Source: a virus
Lineage: Duplodnaviria; Heunggongvirae; Uroviricota; Caudoviricetes
Length of the DNA: 64,000 nucleotides
Direction: 5' to 3' (one strand)
IMG/VR virus record: IMGVR_UViG_2541047680_000004
In this document: piece by piece, positions 4,400 through 59,215 of the stretch
How the letters are laid out: every line of letters begins with the position of its first letter
Numbering within the stretch: position 1 is the first letter of the stretch
The notes under the pieces: generated by a model
What the model was told of the DNA's origin: nothing
Database searches by the model: none
What the model saw: the letters and a program-made list of their open reading frames with translations, nothing else
Translations under genes and position numbers: made by a program

Positions 4400-5008
4400 T
4401 CAGTTATACAGATTTCTATTTATTACCGGTACTCTGCCATTTACACTAAAACTATGGCCGCCATTAAGTTGGTTTACGAATATAGAGCTAACAGTATTTC
4501 CATATGCCGCATATCCATAAACCATTGTCATGGCCCCGCCCGGTACTGGAACCGCGAACACATTTGCATATGTTGGGATTATCGCTGGCGGGTAATCAAA
4601 AACATGCCCTCCAGAACTGTTCCACTCCGTATTATTAAGAAAGGTAAATGAAAGTGGGATATTTGCCGTATTATAGATCTCCTCTCCTCGCGCATTGAAA
4701 AAACTCATGCCCCAAGTTTCTTTTTTGGCTATACCTTTCGAAAATACGTATATCGTGGCACTAGAGTCGCTACCCTGACCTCCGAAACTGTAAATCACCT
4801 GGTTGTTACGCACTATTCTGTTGGCTATTAATGAAACAGCTTTCGAATAGGCAACAAAAATCATCGGTGAACGATCTGGAGATATTTGGGTGTTAAACTC
4901 TGTCCCGCCGGACAAAGAAACAACCTGCTTTCTCTGAAAAACGATAGGAGACAAAGAAGGAGACATCCAGACCTTCCCGTCAGATCGATATATCTTGCTT
5001 CCGTACAT
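4400..5008 (-). CDS. hypothetical tail-fiber-associated protein
   Basis: 202 aa, Gly/Ser/Asn-rich; start overlaps upstream stop in TAATG arrangement (translational coupling). Confidence 0.35.
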   Translation of the reverse strand: MYGSKIYRSDGKVWMSPSLSPIVFQRKQVVSLSGGTEFNTQISPDRSPMIFVAYSKAVSLIANRIVRNNQVIYSFGGQGSDSSATIYVFSKGIAKKETWGMSFFNARGEEIYNTANIPLSFTFLNNTEWNSSGGHVFDYPPAIIPTYANVFAVPVPGGAMTMVYGYAAYGNTVSSIFVNQLNGGHSFSVNGRVPVINRNLYN

Positions 5009-16981: not shown

Positions 16982-19900
16982 TTAGTTACGTTGAGTGTTT
17001 GGGTTGAGTGATCCGCCAGGGCGTTTCTCTTGAGCGATAGTCTCAAGCGCGATTGCTTTCATCCGTTGAGCGGCATTGTTCCATATGCTTTCTGTATCGC
17101 CGGATTCTGTCGTGCTACCGTCACTATGGACGTTGATCTCAATTGATACAGGAGAAAGAACATTTCCGCCTCCACTCATACCATCGGTACTGAGCGTTAC
17201 AGGGATTGTTCGGCCATCAGGCAATGGAACATACGCCTCATTCATAGAACCTTCCCCAAACAACGCTAATTGAGGCGAGTTAGCAATACCGCCTTTCTGG
17301 TATGCCCCGAGCGGGATCACGCCGTCTTTTCCGAATATTCCTCCATTTGCAAACTTCGGGATTGCAGGAATGCCTTTAGTTCCGTCAGCCACACTGCTGG
17401 TTGCGGTTTTAGCAGAGCTTGATGTCACGCTGTCGAAACCACCGCCAGCCCAAGCTGAAACAAGACCAGATGCAACCGTTGCTCCAAAACTCAACCACTT
17501 ATTACCAGAGCCGGAAGCATTAGCTCCAAGCATTGCAAACGCGGCAGACAGCGCGCCGGTAACAGAGCTGAGGTTCTGCATCGAGAAGATGGAGTCCTTC
17601 ACGGCTTTTGTCTCGGCATCTTTGGCTTCAGTGCTATCAAATAGCCCTGATACCCAGCTACCAATCGCATTTGTTGCAGTGCCAATTGCGCTGGTGGTCT
17701 GCTGTGTTGTTTGCCCCAATCCAGTTACCGAACTGGACGTCTCCTTCGTGGCTTCTCCTACCGACTTGTCGCCGTTAACAGTGTTGCCCATTCGTACCCC
17801 TTGATTGGCAACGGCGGAAGCAACCCCGGTCAGCAAATTACCACTCTGTGAACTACCAGCTGCGGTGGTTCCCATCCCCAACATGTTCATTAGAGGCAGC
17901 GTGATTTGCGACTTCACGACCATATTGGTGATATCTTTCAAAATGGACTGAGATAGGCTGGAGAAGCTCATCTTCCCGTTAATAACGAAATCAGTCAGGA
18001 CATCAGTTAAGCCACTAAACAAATCAGTCCAGGTGCTTTCGATCTGCTCTGCCAAGTTTTCGTATTCCAGTGCCAACTTCTGCGTCGCAGTCCCCGTCTC
18101 TTTAATAAGCGCGGTATTGCCAGCAGCAATCAGTTGATTGATTTTCTTTGTATAAAGCGCCACAACTTTAGGATCAGACGCCTTATCACGAAGTTCTATC
18201 AACGCTTTGAGATTGCGGTTGTAGGTGTCTTCGAAATCAGCAACTTTCTCTTCGCGAGACGGCGTATAGCCAGCACTAATAATGGAATCCGCCTCCGGTG
18301 CCCAAGTGGAGATCATCTGCTCAACATTGCGGCGATTAAACATCTCGCGATATTCAGGTGTCGCATTTTTGAGGTCTTCAAGACGTTTTTTCGCCTTGTC
18401 GATCATCTCTTGAGTGATGAACTCGTTAGGAACCGCATTAGCCAAATCTGTCAGCGATTTCGTTGTATCGCGAAGAGACTGATCAAACGATACCGTAGCC
18501 TTAGAGCTTTCACCCATTTGCCCCATAAGCTGATCGGCTTTGTCCAGAGCCTTCTGGTATCCGGCTGCCAGTTTCTGTTGCGCTGCCTGTTCCTTCTTGG
18601 CCGCACGCTGCGAGGCGTTAGCTGATCGTTGGGCTGCTTTCTCGGCAGCTGCTGCATCCTGTTCACGAGCTTTAGTTAGTGCAGCAATGGCTGCGGCACG
18701 CTCTTCATCGCTCATTTTCTCCAGAGAGCTGGCGCTGGATGCTTTCTGCAAATTAAGCTGCGTCTTGAGTTGTTTAGGCCCAATAATCGGCTTACCTTCG
18801 AAGTCCATCATCGGAGTGCCGTCAGGCAAAGTACGCTGATAAGTCGCAGAATCCATCTGGTTTCGCATATATTGCGCCAACGCCTTCTGAGCAGCTTTAT
18901 CAGTTGTACCTAACCCAAGAACAGTCCCCTGGTTTGACATTACGCCCTTACCAGTTTTGGCCGCGTTATCTCTCTCGAACTCTGCCTGAGTAAGTTCCTG
19001 AGCAACGGCTTCCAAATGCTCCTGATAACCACGAATACTGCCTTGCAGTTTCTGGATTTGCTCGGTATTGCCATCCTTTTTGGCTTTTTCAAGCTGATCA
19101 TTAAGAGTCGCGATTTGCTTCTCGGTCGCATTCTTACGAGAAGAAAGTGAATCAACCAGTTTTTGCGCAGGCTCCAGATAGCTTTTGTTTACCGTTTCAC
19201 GTAACGGTGCCAATAGCTTGTTCTTTTCGTCATCTGAAAGTGAACCGTCATCATTGATTTTCTGAATCTTATCCAGAGCCTCCTGCCGGGCTTTCACGAA
19301 TGTTGCCGCGAAAATCTGGTTTTCCTCTCGAATTTTCTCAATCTGAGATTCGGCAGCCTCTTTAGCCAAACGCTTTGCTACAGCGCCGTCACCAAGAGCT
19401 ATCGTGCCGGTTATCTTTTGATACTCTTCCTGATTTTTTTTCAGGCGTGCTTCGATGTCAGCCTTCGACTCTTTGTGAGTAATAACACCGGCAGAGTTAG
19501 ATACGTAATTAACGCCCTCACCATTTTTTAATGCTCGTTGATCAGCGAGAATCTGCTTTTCGAGCTTTTCTGCGCGATCGGCCATCTGTGCTCGTTTGGC
19601 CGCTGTCATCGCCTCTGGTATTTTCCTAATCTCGTCAACGACCTTTGAAGTTTCGCTGCGGAGCATGGTCATGTACGTGATTAGGCCAGCAACAGCTACA
19701 GTGGCAACTGTAAATGCTGCCCCTATAGGGTTTGCTGCAATGAACGCCGTTAATCCCGCAAAAGCGCCTTTAAGCCCCGTAATCGCCCCACGGATGGCGA
19801 AAATAAGAGAGGGGATCGGAGCCAGCCCCATACGTGCCGCACGATTGAATCGAGTTACTGCTGTAGCACCGAGATTAAATGGAGTCTGTATGGCGGTCGC

Positions 19901-37752: not shown

Positions 37753-38277
37753 ATGACAACCAAAGATATTACCTACGGTATCCAAGCTGAACTCTGGCCG
37801 CGAGATTACACTAACGTTGAAAAACTACTGATGTTCTGGCGCAGAGAACAAATTCCTGTAAGGGTCACTCTCGAAGATGGCCAGGCGTTTTGCATGTACG
37901 TTTATGGCCTCATGCCATCTCGTAACAAAGTTGACCTTTGCCCAGCCCCTTTTGACAAAGAAAATCGTATAAGGCTCCCACTTGAACGCATTAGTACAAT
38001 TGAATCAGGTGTGGTTGACAGTATCGCTCACGATTTCAAAGGTCGACTAACAGTTCACCCTGATTATGTCGATAATCGGCCATCACGCCGCGATTTTTTT
38101 GCAATTTGCAACCAAGCCTACAAAGCAAACAAATCTATAAGGGTGTACATGGCGGATGGCCGTGAAATTGAGGGGGTGTCAGCAGGCGCAGATGCTTGTC
38201 AGGTTACACTACGTGTCGAGAACGGTAGAAAAATAGTTGTTTTGTTCGATTGGGTTGAACGAATTTTGCCTTTTTGA
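37753..38277 (+). CDS. hypothetical protein
   Basis: 174 aa from MTTKDITYG; no motif recognised. Confidence 0.45.
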   Translation: MTTKDITYGIQAELWPRDYTNVEKLLMFWRREQIPVRVTLEDGQAFCMYVYGLMPSRNKVDLCPAPFDKENRIRLPLERISTIESGVVDSIAHDFKGRLTVHPDYVDNRPSRRDFFAICNQAYKANKSIRVYMADGREIEGVSAGADACQVTLRVENGRKIVVLFDWVERILPF

Positions 38278-39522: not shown

Positions 39523-39533
39523 TTAATGGAATC

Positions 39534-39554
39534 AAGCGCCCACTATGGGCGCTT
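39534..39554 (+). other. hairpin (copy 1 of GCGCCC-ACTAT-GGGCGC) between moron genes
   Basis: identical stem-loop recurs at 40030-40054 where it carries a T-run; here only TTT follows. Confidence 0.45.
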
Positions 39555-40029: not shown

Positions 40030-40054
40030 AGCGCCCACTATGGGCGCTTTTTTC
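40030..40054 (+). terminator. rho-independent terminator
   Basis: stem GCGCCC/GGGCGC, loop ACTAT, then TTTTTT. Confidence 0.65.
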
Positions 40055-40480: not shown

Positions 40481-40594
40481 TTCCCGATGTTTTTTCTACA
40501 CAAAGGCGAATGCAGCCGTTTCCCGAAAAAATCCTGGCCGTTCCCCGTCGGCTCATGAATACGTTCCTCGCCGTTTCTGAAAATTTCCCTGCGG
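40481..40594. repeat. iteron cluster 1 (direct repeats of GCCGTTTCCCGAAAA-like units)
   Basis: units at about 40514, 40536, 40570 with partial copies at 40488, 40561, 40584; 22-33 bp phasing; ORF-free convergent intergenic region. Confidence 0.6.
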
Positions 40595-40604: not shown

Positions 40605-40640
40605 CTATAGAGAAAGGGCCGTTTCTGGCCCTCTTCTCAG

Positions 40641-41123
40641 TTACACGCCATCAAGGATGTGGATGCGGTTGCTTGCGTATACATTCAGCATAAAGTTAGC
40701 GCAAAACAGTTTCCATGTATCAACGCCAGCGGTATACGTAATGTTTTTGCATTTAATCGCATTGTTGGCGATCCGCATCCCCTGCGATACTGCTTCATCG
40801 TCGGAAAATTTGAACGACGATTGAGTTTTAATCCAGACAGAAATCTGCGTAGCAAACTCAATCAGCTTAGACTGGCAGAATCGCCCGGAGCGTACCGGGA
40901 AGACGAACGTTCCGAATCCAGAATTAACCACATATGCTTTCTCAAATACCCTCGAGTAACGACGATTGCCAATGATGTCGCGTGCAATAATGCATTTTTC
41001 TTGTGCTGACAGTTCTACCGTCTCATTGTCGCGCCATGCACCAAGTACTCGTTTTTCAATGTCAGAGAACGTTACAGCGATATTGCCATGTGCGGGTGCG
41101 TTTACAGTAGCGATAAAATTCAT
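40641..41123 (-). CDS. hypothetical protein
   Basis: 160-aa ORF preceded by family-1 operator and GATAAT-like element. Confidence 0.45.
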   Translation of the reverse strand: MNFIATVNAPAHGNIAVTFSDIEKRVLGAWRDNETVELSAQEKCIIARDIIGNRRYSRVFEKAYVVNSGFGTFVFPVRSGRFCQSKLIEFATQISVWIKTQSSFKFSDDEAVSQGMRIANNAIKCKNITYTAGVDTWKLFCANFMLNVYASNRIHILDGV

Positions 41124-41142
41124 GATTAATTCCTTATCGTAA

Positions 41143-41177
41143 ATAACAAATTGTTTTCTTGTTGGTGTTAATTATCG
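41143..41177. promoter_or_regulatory. family-1 operator/promoter element
   Basis: AACAAATTGTTTTCTTGTTGGTGTTAATTATCG; GATAAT-like -10 on gene strand. Confidence 0.5.
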
Positions 41178-41207
41178 TTGTACGAATAAGGCGTCAAAGT
41201 GGAAAGT

Positions 41208-41280
41208 TGCGGTAGCCGGACGGGAACAGGTGGGTTTGTCGGTTGCCTGGAGGTAAGAGGTTGGTGTTTTTAGCCTGCGG
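41208..41280. repeat. about 70-bp G/T-rich repeat, copy A
   Basis: roughly 75 percent identical to 44385-44455 (shared GGTAGCC..AGGTGGGT..TCGGT.GCCTG..AAGAGGTTGGT). Confidence 0.5.
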
Positions 41281-41473
41281 GAAACAGGATGGTCATTTAA
41301 GGCCACCAATGCTGATGGCCTTAATAATTATCGACCGATTACGCTAAGGATCTTTTCCTCAACTGATTTGTTGTTGCGACTAAACTGCCTTGCGTATCTG
41401 ATGACAGAAGAGGCGTTTTGCTTTCTGACCATCTCGGCTCTTTCCTTCAGGCGTTTCTTGAAATCGCCCATAT

Positions 41474-41848
41474 TTACCACCAGGCGCAGAAGGTCAGTCT
41501 GTTATTGTGAAAGTCGTGGTTCCTGATCAGGTCTTCCACAAGTTTTTTCAGCTTATCCACGTCATGCCAGTAACCTTCGTCGTACTCCTGACTGCCGAAG
41601 AAAAAACCTTCCCGAGTAGGCAAGTACTCTTCGCAATTGCTTTCGTTTATGTGCATCAAATGAGCTTTCAGAAGACAAATGTCATTCATCGTTAATTCTA
41701 AAAGCTCACAATTTTCGACTTCACCTACGTTGCGCTCCATCCACCCAACGAGCGCATTGAACTTACGGAAGTAAGCAACCTGCTTTCTGGATGCCTCGTT
41801 ATTCAGATCGTTTTTAGGCTGTGTCTCGATATAGATATCAAGTCCCAT
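41474..41848 (-). CDS. hypothetical protein
   Basis: start set at MGLDIY with RBS AAGGAAA; Trp/Cys-containing C-terminus. Confidence 0.45.
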   Translation of the reverse strand: MGLDIYIETQPKNDLNNEASRKQVAYFRKFNALVGWMERNVGEVENCELLELTMNDICLLKAHLMHINESNCEEYLPTREGFFFGSQEYDEGYWHDVDKLKKLVEDLIRNHDFHNNRLTFCAWW

Positions 41849-41882
41849 GATGGTTTCCTTATTAAGTTGCTTCAGTGAAATC

Positions 41883-41922
41883 ATTTTCACAAATCAGATA
41901 AGGCAGAAAACAAATTGTTATC
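41883..41922. promoter_or_regulatory. family-1 operator element (B-form)
   Basis: ATTTTCACAAATCAGATAAGGCAGAAAACAAATTGTTATC. Confidence 0.5.
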
Positions 41923-41930
41923 GGGCATAA

Positions 41931-41958
41931 TAAAATGGCGCGGTTTACGCGCCATTTA
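41931..41958 (-). terminator. terminator hairpin after gene 41966..42361
   Basis: perfect inverted repeat AAATGGCGCG / CGCGCCATTT with loop GTTTA. Confidence 0.5.
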
Positions 41959-41965
41959 AAGAGGA

Positions 41966-42361
41966 TTAAGCGAATACGCTTTCAGGGATTAAGGTGTCGG
42001 CAGGAATGCCAGAGGTAATGCGCAGACCGTACTGGCCAATCCAGGTGGTGCTGGTGTTCAGGCTGGAGGCGAATACGGTGTTAACCATATTCATCATGGT
42101 TTCAAACACCTCTTCATCAACCTGGCGGAAGTAGTTCTCGATTTTCAGCAGCAGCGGGTCAGTTGCATCGAGAATGGACTGGTATTGAGTCGCGTACTCG
42201 CCGTCGGAGGCATCACCTTTACGCACGATCGTACTGGCCTGTACTTCGGCACCAGTTTCGGTGTTGTACGTAACAACGGTGATTTTTGCCACATTCTTAC
42301 CTTCGGCGGTTTCAGAGGCATAGTAAACATCAACTGTCAGTTTTTCGCGTTTAACGGTCAT
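41966..42361 (-). CDS. hypothetical protein
   Basis: start set at MTVKREKL with RBS GGAGAG. Confidence 0.45.
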   Translation of the reverse strand: MTVKREKLTVDVYYASETAEGKNVAKITVVTYNTETGAEVQASTIVRKGDASDGEYATQYQSILDATDPLLLKIENYFRQVDEEVFETMMNMVNTVFASSLNTSTTWIGQYGLRITSGIPADTLIPESVFA

Positions 42362-42487
42362 TTCACTCTCCGTAGTGTATTGGTTATTTTTATATTCTAT
42401 GATCGTAAGTATGTACTTACAATACAAAAAAGCCCCGTAAGGATGGCGGGGCTGTCGTACTGTCGACTAATTACCACTTGCACATTA

Positions 42488-42799
42488 TCAGGCTATTGCC
42501 ATCACTGATGCTCTCTGAATTTCTTGCTGGGCCACGCGGTTAACTTCCATCAAGGCCAGTTCGAGCTGATGTTCCGGCCACATTCTTTGAAACGCCATCC
42601 AGCCTTTTCCACGCTGGCGACGAACATTCATTACATAACGAGTAAAGGTGTTTTTATCGAAAGACACCGCTGTTTCACGGAACAGACGAATAGAGGTTCC
42701 ATTGGCAACGATGTCCAGCAAAGTTAATTGAGCAACCAGCGCAGGCTTCTCTTTTCTCTTCTGGTCTTTGTCCAGACCAAGAACCAATGATTTTTTCAT
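42488..42799 (-). CDS. hypothetical protein
   Basis: start set at MKKSLVLGL; basic. Confidence 0.45.
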   Translation of the reverse strand: MKKSLVLGLDKDQKRKEKPALVAQLTLLDIVANGTSIRLFRETAVSFDKNTFTRYVMNVRRQRGKGWMAFQRMWPEHQLELALMEVNRVAQQEIQRASVMAIA

Positions 42800-42810
42800 C
42801 ACAACTCCGT

Positions 42811-42834
42811 AAACAACTTGTTTTCTCAATGGCG
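42811..42834. promoter_or_regulatory. family-1 operator element
   Basis: AAACAACTTGTTTTCTCAATGGCG about 12 nt upstream of the start codon. Confidence 0.5.
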
Positions 42835-42953
42835 TAAATAATACCAGTAAGAAAACGGCTACAAAGCATAATGATCAGGTGTATGAGCGATATGCAGGTT
42901 CTTCCCTGCGGCTACAGATGAAGTTAAGCCAGCATTGCTGGCTTTGGTTGGGT

Positions 42954-43283
42954 TTACTCGAATACTTCAAGAAACTCCTGAACGTCCCAATGCTGGACGA
43001 GGTGAAGATAGACCTTAGAAATCACGTCATTTTCGCTATCGCATGTGAAGTAGTACTTCTGGCTGCGGTTGTATGTGTCCACACAAAATTCGCTCATATC
43101 CATAAAGTCAGCATCTTCACCCATGTCGCAAATCATCAAAGCAGGTGCATCATCACGAGTCATCAGCTCCAGCACCCATCTTGAATTAATCAGAGTGGAA
43201 GACCAACCTTCCAGCTCATAGAACTGGTCAAACTCTTTTTGAGTTAATTTCTTGATTTGGTTGATGTCGATATTTGCAAACAT
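42954..43283 (-). CDS. hypothetical small acidic protein
   Basis: start set at MFANIDIN; Asp/Glu-rich. Confidence 0.45.
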   Translation of the reverse strand: MFANIDINQIKKLTQKEFDQFYELEGWSSTLINSRWVLELMTRDDAPALMICDMGEDADFMDMSEFCVDTYNRSQKYYFTCDSENDVISKVYLHLVQHWDVQEFLEVFE

Positions 43284-43294
43284 AAAGCAATCCT

Positions 43295-43329
43295 TAAACA
43301 ACATGTTTTCTTGATGGTGTTATTATCGC
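43295..43329. promoter_or_regulatory. family-1 operator/promoter element
   Basis: TAAACAACATGTTTTCTTGATGGTGTTATTATCGC. Confidence 0.5.
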
Positions 43330-43444
43330 AATAACGCACAGGCGAAAAAGGATTTTATTCCGGTGAATATGGTTTTGGCAGTGAGTTTTCAGGTTCAGTA
43401 CCGAGTATACTTTTTACATTATTCTGATTTAGTGGCCGAAGGTG

Positions 43445-43644: not shown

Positions 43645-43777
43645 GCCGTTCCTGAACCGGCATCGAGCCTTTTCCCGAAATCCACACAGGCAACTCGACC
43701 GTTTCCCTGAAAACCTCCAGCCGTTCCCCGAAGGCAACCCAGCCTTTTCTGTAGCGGGATGCAACCTTTTCCCTGTA
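43645..43777. repeat. iteron cluster 2 (six direct repeats, about 22-bp phasing)
   Basis: units at 43645, 43666, 43697, 43719, 43741, 43763 (e.g. GACCGTTTCCCTGAAAA); extra copy near 43470; same family as cluster 1. Confidence 0.65.
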
Positions 43778-44100
43778 TGGACCGAAGGCTGACCGTAGGG
43801 GTTTTACGGGGGATAAAATCAGGAGTTGAATAAATACGAAAAAGGAGGCGACACCCCTCCTTCCCTCCCCACTTATACATACCTGGCTTCTTCGCTATAC
43901 ATGTTGTGTTTTCTTCGTGTTTTATCTGTCTCAACCTCTCTATAGGCGTTAATGCTCACTCCTTCCAGAACCTTCTATACGGCGACTATTTCTGTTGGTG
44001 AATTGGGTGTGTTGTTCTCTCTGTCGGTGTATGTGGTTTCGTTCGTTTTGCGGTGGTTCTTCTATGGGGTGTTCTCGTCGTTTTGGTGATTGTTCTTCTC

Positions 44101-44460
44101 CGTGTATGGAGTAATGGCAGGTGGGCGATTCCTTTCGTTATTGTGTTTGAGTTGTTTGTCTGGAGTGTGTGAAAGGCTTTTGTAGTTATTCGTGTATTGG
44201 GTAATGGCGTTTCCCGTGATTGTTATGTTTCGTGTCTTTTGGGATTGAGAGAAACCTTGCGGTTACAGGCTTCGTTGGGGTTTCAGTGATTCTGGTGTTT
44301 CTTCGCTGTTTGGGTAATGGCGTGTCGTGGGTATCGCGCGTATGAATGTTTTCGGATTGCCTGTGAAAGTTAGGTTGGTTGTCCGGTAGCCTGGGGAGAA
44401 GAGGTGGGTCTTTTCGGTAGCCTGCCATAAAGAGGTTGGTTGTTTTGGGTAATGGTATAT
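44101..44460. repeat. direct repeats in GT-rich ORF-free region
   Basis: CGTGTAT(T)GG(A/G)GTAATGGC at 44101, 44191, 44304 and degenerate copy at 44437; strong G+T excess on plus strand across 43960-44700. Confidence 0.55.
44385..44455. repeat. about 70-bp G/T-rich repeat, copy B
   Basis: pairs with 41208-41280. Confidence 0.5.
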
Positions 44461-44701
44461 GTGTTATTTAGTTGTTTTGTTATGCCTGAAAATAAGTTGT
44501 TTATATGGTTGTGTAACGCAACGGGAGCGATTTTGAGCGTGTGTTTTTGTTGGTAGTGTGTTGAGTCGTCTGTGGTGAAAATTGGACGCTGTGGCGCTAT
44601 CTGCTGCGTAGAATTACGGGTATAAGAAGTGATGTGTGATAACGTCAATTTTTTAGACCAAATCGGGAGAAAGCGTTGATGTTTCGTTGATCTGTTATTT
44701 A

Positions 44702-44728
44702 GTTGTTTTCTTATTGGTATAAACAACC
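44702..44728. promoter_or_regulatory. family-1 half-site element
   Basis: GTTGTTTTCTTATTGGTATAAACAACC; would drive minus-strand transcription into the GT-rich region. Confidence 0.35.
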
Positions 44729-44845
44729 ATAACCTATTGATATTTAATGATGTGATTGCTGGTATGGGAGGGGAGTAGTGGCGATCAACGGGTTCTTATA
44801 GAAAAGAATCAAATTGTGACCGCCATTATCAATAAGTTGCAACCG

Positions 44846-45527: not shown

Positions 45528-45713
45528 TTAGATGAGATGGTCTAATTCATCATCTATCATGGCTTTGACGCTGGAGTCATTCACTCCATATTTATTTATG
45601 AGCTGTTTCAGCTCTGGCGAAAACTGAAGGTAGATATCGTGAGCGTTTTTCACTGTAGGTTCAACGCCACGCATTTCAAGCGCCTTTAGTAGATATGAGT
45701 CTTCTTTAAGCAT
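45528..45713 (-). CDS. hypothetical small protein
   Basis: 61-aa ORF. Confidence 0.3.
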   Translation of the reverse strand: MLKEDSYLLKALEMRGVEPTVKNAHDIYLQFSPELKQLINKYGVNDSSVKAMIDDELDHLI

Positions 45714-46062: not shown

Positions 46063-46095
46063 AAACAAGTTGTTTTCTTATGTGGTTTATTATCT
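46063..46095. promoter_or_regulatory. family-1 operator/promoter element
   Basis: AAAACAAGTTGTTTTCTTATGTGGTTTATTATC. Confidence 0.5.
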
Positions 46096-46107
46096 CCATC
46101 AACAAAA

Positions 46108-46130
46108 GGCAGAAAACATATTGTTTTAGG
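46108..46130. promoter_or_regulatory. family-1 operator element (B-form)
   Basis: GGCAGAAAACATATTGTTTTAGG about 40 bp from metG terminator. Confidence 0.5.
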
Positions 46131-46210: not shown

Positions 46211-48244
46211 TTACTTAACCTGGTGGCCAGGTTTAGCACCAGCATCCGGGCTTAACAGGAAGATATCTTTCCCGCCGGGGCCAGCAGCCATCACCATGCC
46301 TTCAGAGATACCGAAGCGCATTTTACGCGGAGCCAGGTTAGCCACCATAATTGTGTGACGACCAATCAGTGCCTGTGGGTCTGGATAAGCAGAACGGATG
46401 CCTGAGAAGACATTACGCTTTTCACCACCGAGATCCAGCGTCAGGCGCAGCAGCTTGTCAGAACCTTCAACAAACTCTGCGTTTTCAATCAGCGCCACGC
46501 GCAGGTCAACTTTAGCGAAGTCGTCAAAGGTGATGGTTTCCTGAATCGGGTCGTCTGCCAGTGGGCCAGTTACCGGTGCGGCTGTGGCTTTCACTTCTTC
46601 TTTGGATGCTTCCACCAGTGCTTCCACCTGTTTCATATCGATACGGTTATACAATGCCTTGAACGGATTCACTTTATGGCCCAGCAGCGGTTGCTGGATA
46701 CCATCCCAGGTCAGTTCTGTATTCAGGAATGCTTCTGCACGTTCAGTCAGTTTCGGCAGTACCGGTTTCAAGTAAGTCATCAGCACGCGGAACAGGTTAA
46801 TGCCCATAGAGCAAATCGCCTGCAGATCGGCATCGCGTCCTTCCTGCTTCGCCACCACCCACGGAGCCTGTTCATCAACATAGCGGTTAGCCAGGTCAGC
46901 CAGTGCCATGATTTCACGGATAGCTTTACCAAATTCGCGGCTTTCCCATGCTTCGCCAATCACTTCAGCGGCATCAGTAAAGGTTTTGTACAGTTGCGGG
47001 TCAGCCAGTTCGCTTGCCAGCACGCCGTCAAAACGCTTGTTGATAAAGCCTGCATTACGGGAGGCCAGGTTAACCACTTTGTTCACGATATCGGCATTCA
47101 CGCGCTGAACGAAATCCTCCAGGTTGAGATCGATATCATCAATGCGCGAAGAGAGTTTCGCAGTGTAGTAGTAACGCAGGCTGTCGGCGTCAAAATGATT
47201 CAGCCAGGTGCTGGCTTTAATAAAGGTACCGCGAGACTTAGACATCTTCGCGCCGTTCACCGTCACATAGCCATGAACAAACAGGTTGGTCGGCTTGCGG
47301 AAGTTGCTGCCTTCCAGCATTGCTGGCCAGAACAGACTGTGGAAGTAAACAATATCTTTACCGATGAAGTGGTACAGCTCGGCGGTGGAGTCTTTCTTCC
47401 AGTATTCATCGAAGCTTACGCTGTCGCCGCGCTTGTCGCACAGATTCTTGAAAGAACCCATATAGCCAATCGGCGCATCTAGCCAGACGTAGAAATATTT
47501 ACCCGGCGCGTTCGGAATTTCAAAACCGAAATACGGCGCGTCGCGGGAGATATCCCACTGTTGCAGGCCAGATTCAAACCACTCCTGCATTTTATTTGCC
47601 ACCTGCTCCTGCAACGCACCGCTGCGGGTCCATGCCTGCAACATTTCGCTGAAAGAGGGCAGATCAAAGAAGAAGTGTTCAGAATCACGCATTACCGGCG
47701 TAGCGCCAGAAACCACCGATTTCGGCTCGATCAATTCAGTCGGGCTGTAGGTCGCGCCGCAGACTTCGCAGTTATCGCCGTATTGATCCGGGGATTTACA
47801 TTTCGGGCAGGTGCCTTTCACAAAACGATCCGGCAGGAACATGCCTTTTTCCGGGTCGTACAACTGAGAGATAGTGCGATTTTTAATAAAACCGTTCTCT
47901 TTCAGGCGAGTATAGATAAGCTCAGACAACTGACGGTTCTCTTCGCTGTGCGTCGAGTGATAGTTGTCATAGCTGATGTTAAAGCCTGCGAAATCAGTCT
48001 GGTGTTCCTGACTCATTTCGCCAATCATCTGCTCCGGTGTGATACCAAGTTGCTGTGCTTTCAGCATGATCGGCGTACCGTGGGCATCGTCGGCACAGAT
48101 GAAATTAACCTCGTGGCCGCGCATTCGCTGGTAACGAACCCAGACATCAGCCTGGATGTGCTCCAGCATATGGCCGAGGTGGATTGAGCCGTTAGCGTAC
48201 GGCAGCGCGCACGTCACCAGAATTTTCTTCGCGACTTGGGTCAT
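46211..48244 (-). CDS. metG: methionine--tRNA ligase
   Basis: 677 aa from [25 protein letters not shown] (HIGH-type) with KMSKS; C-terminal tRNA-binding domain; near-identical to enterobacterial MetG as I recall it. Confidence 0.97.
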
Positions 48245-48401
48245 AGTAGGCATTACTTCTTTGTAGTGAAAAGGGGCTTGATAGTAACAAAATGGCCTTA
48301 TGTCTGCCATGTGATAACAGCATTTCTCATAAATGATTAAATGTCGCAGCTGGAGTACACTACAAGGCGACAATTGCGCAAATTAAAATAAAGGAGACGG
48401 G

Positions 48402-49502
48402 ATGAGCGAGTCCAAATCGCCGGATGCCCTGAGAGCAATGGTAGCCGGTACGCTGGCTAATTTTCAGCACCCAACCCTGAAACACAACCTGACTACGCTT
48501 AAAGCGTTACACCATGTTGCGTTGATGGATGACACACTGCATGTCGAACTAATCATGCCTTTCGTGTGGAATAAGCCTTTTGAAGACCTGAAAGAGCAAT
48601 GTAGTGGTGATCTGCTCCGTATCACTGGCGCAAAGGCTATTGACTGGAAGCTGTCGTACAACATTGCCACGCTTAAGCGCGTCAAAAACCAACCAGGCAT
48701 TAATGGTGTTAAGAATATTATCGCCGTAAGCTCAGGCAAGGGCGGTGTAGGCAAATCGTCCACAGCAGTAAACTTGGCACTGGCTTTGGCTGCTGAAGGT
48801 GCGAAAGTTGGTATTTTGGATGCCGATATCTATGGTCCATCAATTCCAACCATGCTGGGCGCGGAAAACCAACGTCCAACCTCACCGGACGGTACTCACA
48901 TGGCACCTATCATGTCTCATGGCCTGGCAACCAACTCTATTGGTTATCTGGTCACCGACGACAATGCAATGGTGTGGCGTGGACCGATGGCCAGCAAGGC
49001 GCTGATGCAGATGTTGCAGGAAACACTGTGGCCTGATCTGGACTATCTCGTTCTCGATATGCCGCCGGGCACTGGTGATATTCAATTGACGCTGGCGCAG
49101 AACATTCCTGTAACTGGTGCGGTTGTGGTAACTACGCCGCAAGACATCGCGCTGATCGATGCGAAGAAAGGCATTGTGATGTTCGAAAAAGTCGAAGTGC
49201 CGGTACTAGGTATCGTCGAAAACATGAGTGTGCATATTTGCAGTAACTGCGGTCATCACGAGCCAATTTTTGGCACCGGTGGCGCACAGAAACTGGCCGA
49301 GAAATACAACACGCAGTTGTTAGGCCAAATGCCACTTCATATCTCTCTTCGTGAAGATCTGGATAACGGAACACCAACCGTTATTAGTCGTCCAGATAGC
49401 GAATTTACGGCTATTTATCGTGACCTCGCAGATCGCGTTGCTGCCCAAATGTATTGGCAAGGTGAAGTAATACCTGGCGAAATCGCATTCCGCGCAGTGT
49501 GA
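48402..49502 (+). CDS. apbC: Fe-S cluster carrier ATPase Mrp/ApbC
   Basis: P-loop SSGKGGVGKS, CxxC motif (CSNCGH); divergent from metG as in E. coli. Confidence 0.95.
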   Translation: MSESKSPDALRAMVAGTLANFQHPTLKHNLTTLKALHHVALMDDTLHVELIMPFVWNKPFEDLKEQCSGDLLRITGAKAIDWKLSYNIATLKRVKNQPGINGVKNIIAVSSGKGGVGKSSTAVNLALALAAEGAKVGILDADIYGPSIPTMLGAENQRPTSPDGTHMAPIMSHGLATNSIGYLVTDDNAMVWRGPMASKALMQMLQETLWPDLDYLVLDMPPGTGDIQLTLAQNIPVTGAVVVTTPQDIALIDAKKGIVMFEKVEVPVLGIVENMSVHICSNCGHHEPIFGTGGAQKLAEKYNTQLLGQMPLHISLREDLDNGTPTVISRPDSEFTAIYRDLADRVAAQMYWQGEVIPGEIAFRAV

Positions 49503-49539: not shown

Positions 49540-49929
49540 CTACATCACAGGACAATCATCAAACTCGCCACTTCTTGCGTCGTTGATAATGTGAGTGATC
49601 ACACCAAACACGGCATTGCTGCCCGTGCATCCATCATCATCCTTTGGCAATGCTTCCTTCTTACCAGTTCTTAAATCCTCCAGATGCTGACGTGGATACT
49701 TCCGGTATCTTTTTACGCGATATTCCCCATCCAGAGCACATACAAGAAGAGATCCATCAACAGGAGTCAGTGAGGAATCGACCACCAGCAATGCACCCTG
49801 CAATATTCCCTCACGATGATGACTATCAGCCGCCCTCATGAAGTAGGTCGCTGAAGGATGTCTAATTATCTGCTGATCAAGAGAAATACGGCTCTCAGCA
49901 TAATCCGCCGCAGGAGAAGGGAAGCCCAT
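49540..49929 (-). CDS. UmuD'-like S24 peptidase-fold protein (HumD-like)
   Basis: begins MGFPSPAADY, aligning with UmuD from the RecA cleavage site onward; Ser (ADSH) and Lys (RVKR) positions conserved; in-frame TAA 15 nt upstream of ATG; RBS AAGAGG. Confidence 0.85.
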   Translation of the reverse strand: MGFPSPAADYAESRISLDQQIIRHPSATYFMRAADSHHREGILQGALLVVDSSLTPVDGSLLVCALDGEYRVKRYRKYPRQHLEDLRTGKKEALPKDDDGCTGSNAVFGVITHIINDARSGEFDDCPVM

Positions 49930-57925: not shown

Positions 57926-58492
57926 TTAGAGTGCGTATTGCGTTTTGTGCGGCTGCTTATTCAAGTCATGGCGATGCGTGAGCTCCCGCATCATGTCTTC
58001 AAGGCGACTCTTTGTGTCGTCGAGCTGGTCGGCCATTGCACCTAAAAGCTGGCGAACGGCCATCGGATCGTCGCTGTTTAGTGATGGCATTTTATAACCT
58101 GCTTTAGAAGATATAAGGTTAATTGCAGACATCAACATCGTTAGAGAGGATTTAAGCCCGGCAATTTCACGATCTTTGCTGGCAATAATCGTCTCACTTT
58201 TATTACCGTCATGAGATCCTTGAGTCTCGCTCACCATATCCAAAGTCGCTTGCAACTTATCAGCTCTCTCTTTTTCAGCAAGATAATGAACACCGAAATG
58301 ATGTGCTAAAGCTACAATCTGAGTTGGCTCTTCAAAGGTGGACTCAAAATTAAGTGCTGTAACCACTCTCTCAAATATGGAAACGTCTTCTATTCCTCGA
58401 AGAATGGCTAACATTTTGACCAGTTCATTAGCATCCATTTCTTCGAATAAGGCGTTTTGTTCATCAGCTATCGCTTTGCATTTCTTGCACAT
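57926..58492 (-). CDS. hypothetical protein
   Basis: 188-aa ORF. Confidence 0.4.
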   Translation of the reverse strand: MCKKCKAIADEQNALFEEMDANELVKMLAILRGIEDVSIFERVVTALNFESTFEEPTQIVALAHHFGVHYLAEKERADKLQATLDMVSETQGSHDGNKSETIIASKDREIAGLKSSLTMLMSAINLISSKAGYKMPSLNSDDPMAVRQLLGAMADQLDDTKSRLEDMMRELTHRHDLNKQPHKTQYAL

Positions 58493-58789: not shown

Positions 58790-59215
58790 TTAGAGATAAG
58801 CATCCAGTGACAACTGAAGCGCCTGGGCGATCTTTTTCAGTGCCTGCTCTTCTTGTTCACCAATGCCGTCCTGATCGGCAATATCAAGGCACAGACACAG
58901 AACATCGACCGCCTCTGGAGTACCCGCAATATCAGACAGCTCACGAATAGCCTGTGCATTAGCAGAACGAGGGGACGCTTCGTAACGAGCACGGATATTG
59001 GCGCTCATTTGGGCAATTTCACCAGCAAACGGAGAAAACGCAGGCAGAGCTGCAATTGTCTTCTCAAGAATGGCAATTTCTTTTGCGTCACATGTGCCGT
59101 CGGCATAGGAGATCATGTACGCGCCCCACACGGTGGCCTCAACCGCATCACGGTTCTCCATTTTTTTGACTTCGATAACAGCTTTACGAGTTTTCTTTTT
59201 GAAGAAACCTAACAT
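58790..59215 (-). CDS. hypothetical protein (possible TerB-like fold)
   Basis: 141 aa; loose resemblance to TerB-type pattern (YADG..E..L); weak. Confidence 0.35.
   Translation of the reverse strand: MLGFFKKKTRKAVIEVKKMENRDAVEATVWGAYMISYADGTCDAKEIAILEKTIAALPAFSPFAGEIAQMSANIRARYEASPRSANAQAIRELSDIAGTPEAVDVLCLCLDIADQDGIGEQEEQALKKIAQALQLSLDAYL

Follow-up and report, generated by a model that had tools for sequence, protein, structure and literature searches.

An island of small, separately terminated genes with a shared promoter-operator module in an SSU5-type phage-plasmid of Escherichia coli

A 64,000-nucleotide stretch of viral DNA (IMG/VR record IMGVR_UViG_2541047680_000004, Caudoviricetes; hereafter the window) carries, at 40641-43304, an island of five small minus-strand open reading frames (ORFs), here called g1 to g5. 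We read the island as an array of short, separately terminated units, four of which would be members of a lytic regulon that a repressor controls in an SSU5-type phage-plasmid, and we regard this reading as probable, if well short of certain. An earlier note, made from the letters of this DNA, had pictured five unknown genes, each behind its own operator and all enclosed by iteron clusters; the observation was largely right, with three corrections, namely that the operator stands before four of the five genes, that there is a sixth gene, and that the iterons are not Rep iterons.

Over 40.0-44.8 kb the window shares 98.6% identity with pECOH89, a plasmid of E. coli (NC_023916), and about 97% with the Escherichia phage Cyrano (pLF82); Klebsiella phage-plasmids and the Salmonella phage SSU5 match less strongly. 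The matches to pECOH89 and Cyrano identify the window, by sequence, as part of an SSU5/pECOH89-type phage-plasmid of E. coli. Such elements are frequent in clinical E. coli, Klebsiella, Salmonella and Shigella, some of them with CTX-M-15, and almost nothing is known of how they control their lytic genes; few anti-defence genes have been recognised in them. A published account of heteroresistance in phage-plasmids deals with a family not related to this one. In both pECOH89 and Cyrano g1 to g5 are annotated as hypothetical proteins throughout. The genes are thus already in the databases; what this work adds is the regulon, the module and the organisation of the slots described below. Open to direct test are a candidate operator with its promoter module, which would define some 18 units as a regulon; a candidate repressor; and two cassette slots as a compact source of candidate host-interference proteins. 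For comparison we used 82 loci (79 found with a g4 profile, together with the window, SSU5 and Klebsiella pJN2-26), and whole-element counts of sites and repeats were made on the reassembled pECOH89 sequence of 111.7 kb.

The genes are listed below, with lengths in amino acids (aa) and isoelectric points (pI). Starts were chosen by ribosome-binding sites, PHROG profile coverage and the positions of promoter elements, and for g2 and g5 the shorter starts were preferred because the longer ones reach into the -10 element and the operator.

40641-41123, minus strand: g1, 160 aa, pI 9.2, phrog_1641; family-wide core gene
41328-41471, minus strand: g2b, 47 aa, pI 11; annotated in Cyrano (CYRAN_109), directly after g2 and without an operator of its own
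41474-41848, minus strand: g2, 124 aa, pI 4.9, phrog_7971; accessory cassette, without counterpart in SSU5 or pJN2-26
41966-42361, minus strand: g3, 131 aa, pI 4.4, phrog_2473; core gene with two allelic types
42488-42799, minus strand: g4, 103 aa, pI 10.5, phrog_5125; core gene
42954-43283, minus strand: g5, 109 aa, pI 4.2, net charge -14, phrog_7645; accessory cassette of E. coli-type elements only

The five genes that had been proposed stand, each with a full-length match to a separate PHROG, all without assigned function; g2b had been missed. Orthologues of the core genes are present in SSU5 (amino-acid identity 70% for g1, SSU5_117; 54% for g3; 64% for g4) and in pJN2-26 (82% for g1, pJN2-26_0042; 37% for g3; 63% for g4), and neither element has a counterpart of g2/g2b or g5. 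The ratio of nonsynonymous to synonymous substitution (dN/dS) of g1, g3 and g4 was 0.11-0.47 (0.12-0.18 for g1 alone), with synonymous sites near saturation, as expected of real genes under purifying selection. An exhaustive HMMER search of 1.8 billion proteins returned 19 cluster representatives of the g1 family, one of which, a 5602-aa eukaryotic repeat protein, is spurious; homology searches with g3, g4 and g5 returned SSU5-type relatives only, those of g5 being confined to E. coli-type elements.

The evidence for common control comes from a repeated dyad. With up to two mismatches allowed, GAAAACAAnTTGTT(TTC) has 26 matches in the window against 3.1 expected, and no shuffle gave 26; the dyad core alone has 16 against 4.1 expected. 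The matches correspond to 12 sites. The sites form part of a stereotyped module of about 55 bp, in which a weak -35 element and an extended -10 element (TGnGATAAT) are followed, after 12 nt, by the 17-bp palindrome GAAAACAAnTTGTTTTC (family 1). The consensus over 167 unique contexts is TTtt..gCCTttt..t.attgcGATAATaAcaCcaAcAAGAAAACAAnTTGTTTA, and the position of the palindrome relative to the extended -10 is fixed. Upstream of g1, g2, g4 and g5 the palindrome lies 19-66 nt from the start codon, and the module is also found in SSU5, pJN2-26 and Cyrano. The promoter regions are given here with the number of loci, among the 82, in which the palindrome was present, that is, within 130 nt upstream of the start codon.

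41142-41197, minus strand: g1 promoter-operator, with TTGACG, 15 nt and GATAAT at 41171-41197 and the palindrome GAAAACAATTTGTT at 41142-41158; 80 of 80 loci
41883-41922, minus strand: g2 promoter-operator, with TTTTCTGCC..TGTGAAAAT at 41883-41910 and a single palindrome at 41906-41922, over the -35 region of what is the same type of promoter; 39 of 39 loci
42394-42422, minus strand: g3 promoter, with TTGTAA, 17 nt and TAGAAT; no family-1 palindrome (0 of 80 loci)
42809-42864, minus strand: g4 promoter-operator, with the palindrome at 42809-42825 and the -35 to -10 stretch at 42838-42864; 82 of 82 loci
43294-43348, minus strand: g5 promoter-operator, with the palindrome at 43294-43310 and TTTTCGCC..TGCGATAAT at 43322-43348; 36 of 36 loci

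The statement that each gene sits behind its own operator therefore holds for g1, g2, g4 and g5 in all loci examined, and g3 is a systematic exception. In all relatives g3 follows an invariant terminator and then TGTATTGTAAGT...TAGAAT, a motif that occurs once in the window. Where palindromes are adjacent, they are 51 bp apart, centre to centre, in 89 of the 94 pairs across the 82 loci, a distance of about five helical turns; within a pair, one palindrome covers the -35 region and the other follows the -10 (for example at 46064-46125 of the window and, in the SSU5 locus, at 4603/4654 and 9946/9997). Such a spacing suggests cooperative DNA binding or looping. Every unit, moreover, ends in a hairpin directly after the stop codon (folding z -2.9 to -4.6), as follows.

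40610-40638, minus strand: hairpin after the g1 stop, -19.3 kcal/mol for the folded 48-nt stretch, z -3.45
41297-41324, minus strand: hairpin after g2b, -17.5 kcal/mol, z -4.57
41927-41957, minus strand: intrinsic terminator after g3, -15.2 kcal/mol, z -4.13, followed by a U-tract
42426-42453, minus strand: intrinsic terminator between g4 and g3, by folding and conservation
42926-42944, minus strand: hairpin after g5, -12.4 kcal/mol, z -4.31

The palindrome is not confined to the island. pECOH89 as a whole has 18 sites, which precede genes for a DnaB-like helicase, nrdB, an AAA ATPase, and HD-domain, DUF4942, TerB-like and DUF5983 proteins, among others, and the gene that heads the terminase/structural (packaging) operon has two palindromes upstream. 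The palindrome is a general lytic operator of the element, not one specific to the island. By analogy, the layout would be that of a global lytic regulon such as the C1 system of P1. As there, one site recurs around a plasmid prophage, here about 18 times, at the promoters of separate lytic or early units that include small accessory genes, and the units would likewise be silent in the lysogen and inducible by the SOS response. The P1 operators are asymmetric 17-mers, whereas the site described here is a perfect dyad and the candidate repressor has no detected relation to C1; the 51-bp pairing and the stereotyped module likewise belong to this element and not to the P1 system. A further likeness is to the ea and nin regions of lambdoid phages, where small, seemingly non-essential genes of the early programme are mosaic among relatives, but those genes are read through from one antiterminated early operon, while the units here have promoter-operators and terminators of their own.

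Expression of the same genes can be read from published RNA sequencing (RNA-seq) of E. coli LF82 carrying Cyrano (Misson et al., PMC9928086, S1 Table). In LF82(Cyrano) grown overnight in lysogeny broth (LB), where the Cyrano background was 9.8 normalised reads, g5 had 12.8, g4 12.2, g3 17.0, g2 5.7 and g1 25.5, that is, 0.6-2.6 times background; the putative master repressor CYRAN_45 had 95.8, and g2b (CYRAN_109), which the authors list as a moron, had 57.9, or 6 times background (PMC9928086). After 1 h in macrophages g5 rose from log2 3.35 to 7.66 and g1 from 4.56 to 7.53, increases of up to about 20-fold, and g3, g4 and g2 rose by about 2 log2 units, with little change in TerL (log2 3.0 to 3.1), the helicase (4.4 to 4.9) and nrdA; ciprofloxacin induced Cyrano 39-fold (PMC9928086). 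Although not taken as a time course of induction, these values agree with repression of the genes in the lysogen and with an early response. Together with a hairpin for each unit and four modules, the near-background reads in the lysogen and the rise in macrophages bear out the earlier suggestion of individually regulated genes and support their membership of a lytic programme.

The best candidate for the cognate repressor is a CYRAN_45-type protein of 128 aa with a weak match to the helix-turn-helix (HTH) family HTH_19, whose gene adjoins that of the integrase outside the window (pECOH89 19362-19748). It is 97-100% identical among the E. coli elements and 56% identical in the Klebsiella elements. 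No homologue was detectable in virulent SSU5 (NC_018843), though the palindromic operators are kept there. With the expression of its gene in the lysogen and its HTH match, this distribution makes a circumstantial case for the protein. As a separate observation, the window has at 49540-49929 (minus strand) a gene whose 129-aa product is an S24 (LexA/CI-type) peptidase domain on its own, without a DNA-binding domain, and which in Cyrano stands at 15 times background in the lysogen and at log2 12 in macrophages; beside the 128-aa HTH candidate it looks like a split repressor/peptidase arrangement.

From the anatomy, its conservation and the silence in the lysogen we infer the following course of events. 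Transcription would start about 7 nt after the -10 element, so that the palindrome would come to lie at about +7 to +23 (at g2 it lies over the -35 region instead). In the lysogenic plasmid state a dimeric repressor, for which the 128-aa HTH protein is the candidate, would sit on the palindrome and block RNA polymerase, possibly binding cooperatively if another site is present exactly 51 bp upstream. DNA damage would lift repression, and the units would fire early. Gene g3 is arranged otherwise, with its own conserved terminator and sigma-70 promoter and without the palindrome.

Several points weigh against this account. The terms operator and early are both deductions, and the palindrome sits in what would be the 5' untranslated region, where a role at the RNA level is possible. 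The response in macrophages is not prophage induction, since the authors report that phage production is blocked there, and other operator-bearing units respond far less, the helicase by +0.5 log2 and TerS by +1.1 (PMC9928086). Gene g3 is almost silent in the lysogen despite a good sigma-70 promoter and no palindrome, and therefore at least one further layer of control must exist. Nor does the simple model account for g2b, which stands at 6 times background when its upstream partner on the same strand, g2, stands at 0.6 times; the difference must come from a promoter within the unit, from antisense RNA or from a stable fragment of RNA. The candidate repressor has diverged to 56% identity between E. 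coli and Klebsiella elements, yet the operator is the same in both. None of the family, sequence or fold searches made could assign a function to any island protein, and the conserved repeat arrays described below have no part in the model.

Comparison of the 82 loci separates the island into a core and two variable slots. Almost every locus has g4, g3 and g1, arranged in this order, and g3 occurs as two allelic types that are 35% identical to each other. The slots lie upstream of g4, with at least 13 architectures, and between g3 and g1, with at least 20; they are filled by the g5, g2, g2b, SSU5_115, SSU5_116, SSU5_112 and SSU5_111 families and about 10 further ORFs of 46-310 aa. The alternative ORFs are mostly acidic and mutually unrelated, the slots of relatives holding at least 15 such ORFans, and neither Pfam nor PHROG gives any of them a function, the sole Pfam match being DUF7706. 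The promoter-operator module travels with many of them, including SSU5_115 (42 of 54 loci) and SSU5_111 (29 of 34 loci). No known anti-defence gene was recognised in any of the 82 loci.

On this distribution g2/g2b and g5 are lineage-specific cargo in two exchange-prone slots, and g1, g3 and g4 are family-wide genes. The turnover can be seen in the loci themselves; what the proteins do we infer from circumstance. The fast turnover of their slots agrees, circumstantially, with host-directed accessory functions, and g2/g2b and g5 would be the best candidates for such functions, be it takeover or anti-defence; the core status of g1, g3 and g4 and the purifying selection on them are less typical of anti-defence cargo, and these three are probably developmental or regulatory. 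We would also put forward, as a tentative proposal more likely wrong than right, that the two slots form an anti-defence hot spot, in which cassettes of unrelated and mostly acidic ORFans (g5 and g2/g2b here, at least 13 others in relatives, most of those checked with the module) are swapped among SSU5-type elements of Enterobacterales, kept silent in the plasmid state and first to fire on entry or induction, g5 and/or g2 being new inhibitors of E. coli immunity. Such an arrangement would resemble acr-aca loci and anti-defence hot spots, where short ORFan cassettes are exchanged at a fixed position behind a strong promoter with an inverted-repeat operator. Unlike those loci, the cassettes here hold no Aca-type regulator, the operator is that of the element's global lytic regulon, and no known anti-defence gene was recognised in the loci compared. 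If the cassettes are anti-defence genes, they would help to explain the host range and the spread of resistance-carrying elements; if not, the island is an ordinary block of conserved hypothetical early genes.

Family and structure searches were of limited help with the products. Profile searches placed none of the six proteins in a Pfam, NCBIfam or PADLOC family, and single-sequence and profile searches found no relatives of the island proteins among PDB sequences. A multicystatin match of g5 (E 1e-4 with the single sequence) was gone when a profile was used and was treated as compositional. Weak APE2256/Csm6 matches of g3 fell below cut-offs, and g3 was rejected as a CARF/Cas_APE2256 protein, its predicted fold being incompatible and its PADLOC match noise. 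The predicted model of g4 (predicted local distance difference test, pLDDT, 81) begins with a basic tail that is disordered, continues in an antiparallel sheet of four strands and closes with a long helix at the C-terminus; from its charge and topology nucleic-acid binding is a reasonable guess. A structure check, which the earlier note had proposed, was made with the predicted g3 and g4 models and gave no convincing fold match.

That note had also called several of the products acidic and had likened the acidity of g5 to that of a DNA mimic. The first statement is correct for g2, g3 and g5, while g1 and g4 are basic. The second is a weak argument: the charge density of g5 is -0.13 per residue, about half that of T7 Ocr, which is -0.24 per residue as computed from its sequence, and 29% of the ORFs of the window have a pI below 5, so that acidity alone does not single out g5. 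In its small size, its acidity, its own promoter and its probably early expression g5 is like Ocr and ArdA; it has no sequence match to them, and neither g5 nor g2 nor g3 could be assigned to the Ocr/ArdA class from Pfam, NCBIfam or PDB sequences. Searched against the same three resources, none of the island proteins matched a replication or recombination protein either, which the note had named as the outcome that would count against it. Rad, a known anti-defence gene of the SSU5 group (189 aa, TOPRIM-like), was not recognised among ten other ORFs of the window, which included the operator-preceded 57926-58492 (188 aa) and 58790-59215. Beside the operator-controlled DUF5983 gene lies a 61-aa acidic ORF (45528-45713, minus strand) with a sub-threshold match to the RecBCD inhibitor gp5.9 of T7 (E 0.0057, 17 aligned residues), the only match of an anti-defence flavour near the island and probably noise.

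Two kinds of direct repeat accompany the genes.

40516-40577, minus strand: X1, direct repeats of 22-nt period, core GGRAAMGG, 3-4 units, downstream of g1
41205-41292, minus strand: Y1, three direct repeats of about 30 nt (ACCnACCTsTT..CAGGCTACCG), between g2b and the g1 promoter
43646-43773, minus strand: X2, six units of 22-nt period, core GGRAAMGG, upstream of the island
44349-44439, minus strand: Y2, second triplet of the repeats of about 30 nt

The enclosing clusters of the earlier note are thus real, X1 and X2 bracketing the five genes and holding 6 of the 7 exact core (9-mer) matches in the 111.7-kb element; Y1 and Y2 are the only copies there of the longer repeat. They are, however, unlike the plasmid's own Rep iterons, which consist of GTATGCTGTCAGCGGT in at least 15 copies around repB; this iteron is absent from the window, and the X and Y repeats are unrelated to it. 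Both arrays are kept in SSU5, in pJN2-26 and in the relatives that have diverged furthest, with g1 down to 33% identity, and Y1 is nearly invariant in SSU5 and pJN2-26, which makes it unlikely that whatever binds the arrays co-evolves with g1 or g4. A neighbouring non-coding stretch of 1.5 kb shows 60-71% conservation with SSU5 and pJN2-26; a search of the region against Rfam gave no match, and DnaA boxes were not enriched, with none in the non-coding region. Within this stretch about 800 bp (43950-44800) show a GC skew of +0.4 to +0.6 and an AT skew of -0.3 to -0.8 on the plus strand, the minus strand being rich in A and C. Four GCCATTACCCAA-type repeats lie at 44107-44456, and an orphan palindrome with no gene downstream lies at 44487-44503. 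The Cyrano ORF called over these 800 bp, CYRAN_103, has reads at the detection floor when the lysogen is grown in LB and near it in the other RNA-seq conditions.

There are alternatives to an array of lytic units. One is that most or all of the small proteins neutralise host immunity early, with g5 an acidic DNA mimic directed against restriction or related systems, and this we consider unlikely. The genes are silent in the lysogen and responsive to stress; three products are acidic, and by charge density g5 belongs to the two most acidic ORFs of the window; the slots of g2 and g5 turn over rapidly and are filled with unrelated acidic ORFans, g5 is limited to E. coli-type elements, and replication and recombination families are not represented. 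A survey of clinical phage-plasmids reports few recognised anti-defence genes in the SSU5 group (10.1101/2025.09.12.675607), so unrecognised ones are to be expected, a scarcity that leaves room for undiscovered genes and proves nothing. Yet no island protein matches a known anti-defence protein in sequence or, as searched with g3 and g4, in fold; the charge density of g5 is half that of Ocr, and a pI below 5 is found in 29% of the ORFs of the window; g1, g3 and g4 form a conserved core with dN/dS around 0.1-0.2, two of them basic; and an individual operator, being generic to about 18 lytic units, is no mark of the island. An anti-defence or DNA-mimic function is accordingly neither supported nor refuted; its plausibility would be greatest for the two acidic cassettes that can be swapped, and lower for the trio of conserved genes. 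For that trio one might think instead of Cro-, Coi- or antirepressor-like proteins of small size, which would strengthen or time the lysis-lysogeny switch after loss of the repressor. Small genes under C1 control, coi among them, act in this switch in P1; the core genes here are family-conserved, small and operator-controlled, hence first made on derepression, g4 is basic and on prediction may bind nucleic acid, and SSU5 has an HTH "repressor-like" gene inside the same island. We nevertheless find such a role improbable, Pfam and NCBIfam having shown no HTH or other regulator signature in the five proteins and the predicted g3 and g4 models no match to Cro-, CI- or Arc-type folds.

To an equal degree improbable, in our view, is that the X and Y arrays and the 1.5-kb non-coding stretch are a lytic origin or a protein-DNA assembly site bound by the basic g1 and g4. 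Two phased arrays of direct repeats of about 22 bp around a gene block do recall oriR-repA-incA of P1 and oriS-repE-incC of F, and the bracketing by nearly all exact X cores of the element, the confinement of the triplets to two places, the conservation of both kinds of repeat in all relatives examined, and a non-coding region that is itself conserved and of extreme strand asymmetry would all suit an origin. Unlike those iteron replicons, however, the island has no Rep-like initiator between its arrays (g1 to g5 have no Pfam or PDB match), no enrichment of DnaA boxes and no repeats related to RepB iterons, the real repB lying elsewhere, and the repeat cores stay invariant where g1 and g4 fall to 33-50% identity, with no co-variation. 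Less credible still is that the palindrome acts on RNA, as a 5' untranslated element for a translational repressor such as the FljA-like protein encoded 3 kb away (37753-38277; Flag1_repress, E 1.5e-84). FljA binds fliC mRNA, and the site does lie between the deduced start site and the ribosome-binding site, 19-27 nt before most start codons, but second copies exactly 51 bp upstream lie over the -35 and outside the transcript that would be regulated, g2 has a copy in the upstream position only, perfect dyad symmetry and helical phasing suit a dimeric DNA binder, and as RNA the site would form only a weak A-U hairpin. We give least credence of all to the genes being "morons", lysogenic-conversion or defence genes expressed from the plasmid state to the benefit of the host. 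They are small accessory ORFs in a variable region, and g2b is listed among the Cyrano morons, but the five genes themselves, at 0.6-2.6 times background, fall under the cut-off that the authors applied (PMC9928086), have no PADLOC match, and in four of five cases carry the lytic operator.

Other features of the neighbourhood deserve mention. Near-identical GC-rich hairpins (AGCGCCCACTATGGGCGCT) stand 495 bp apart at 39529-39553 and 40030-40054, at the ends of plus-strand genes, and look like bidirectional terminators in a convergent zone beside g1. A full-length methionyl-tRNA synthetase gene and a divergent gene for an ApbC/MinD-like ATPase occupy 46211-49502, and the ATPase gene stands at 9 times background in the Cyrano lysogen. 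The FljA-family protein (Flag1_repress) encoded on the plus strand at 37753-38277 is full-length, with a weak Hfq-like signal, and a homologue of a flagellar-phase repressor on a phage-plasmid is itself worth noting; in macrophages the Cyrano gene of this family rises from log2 4.2 to 8.1.

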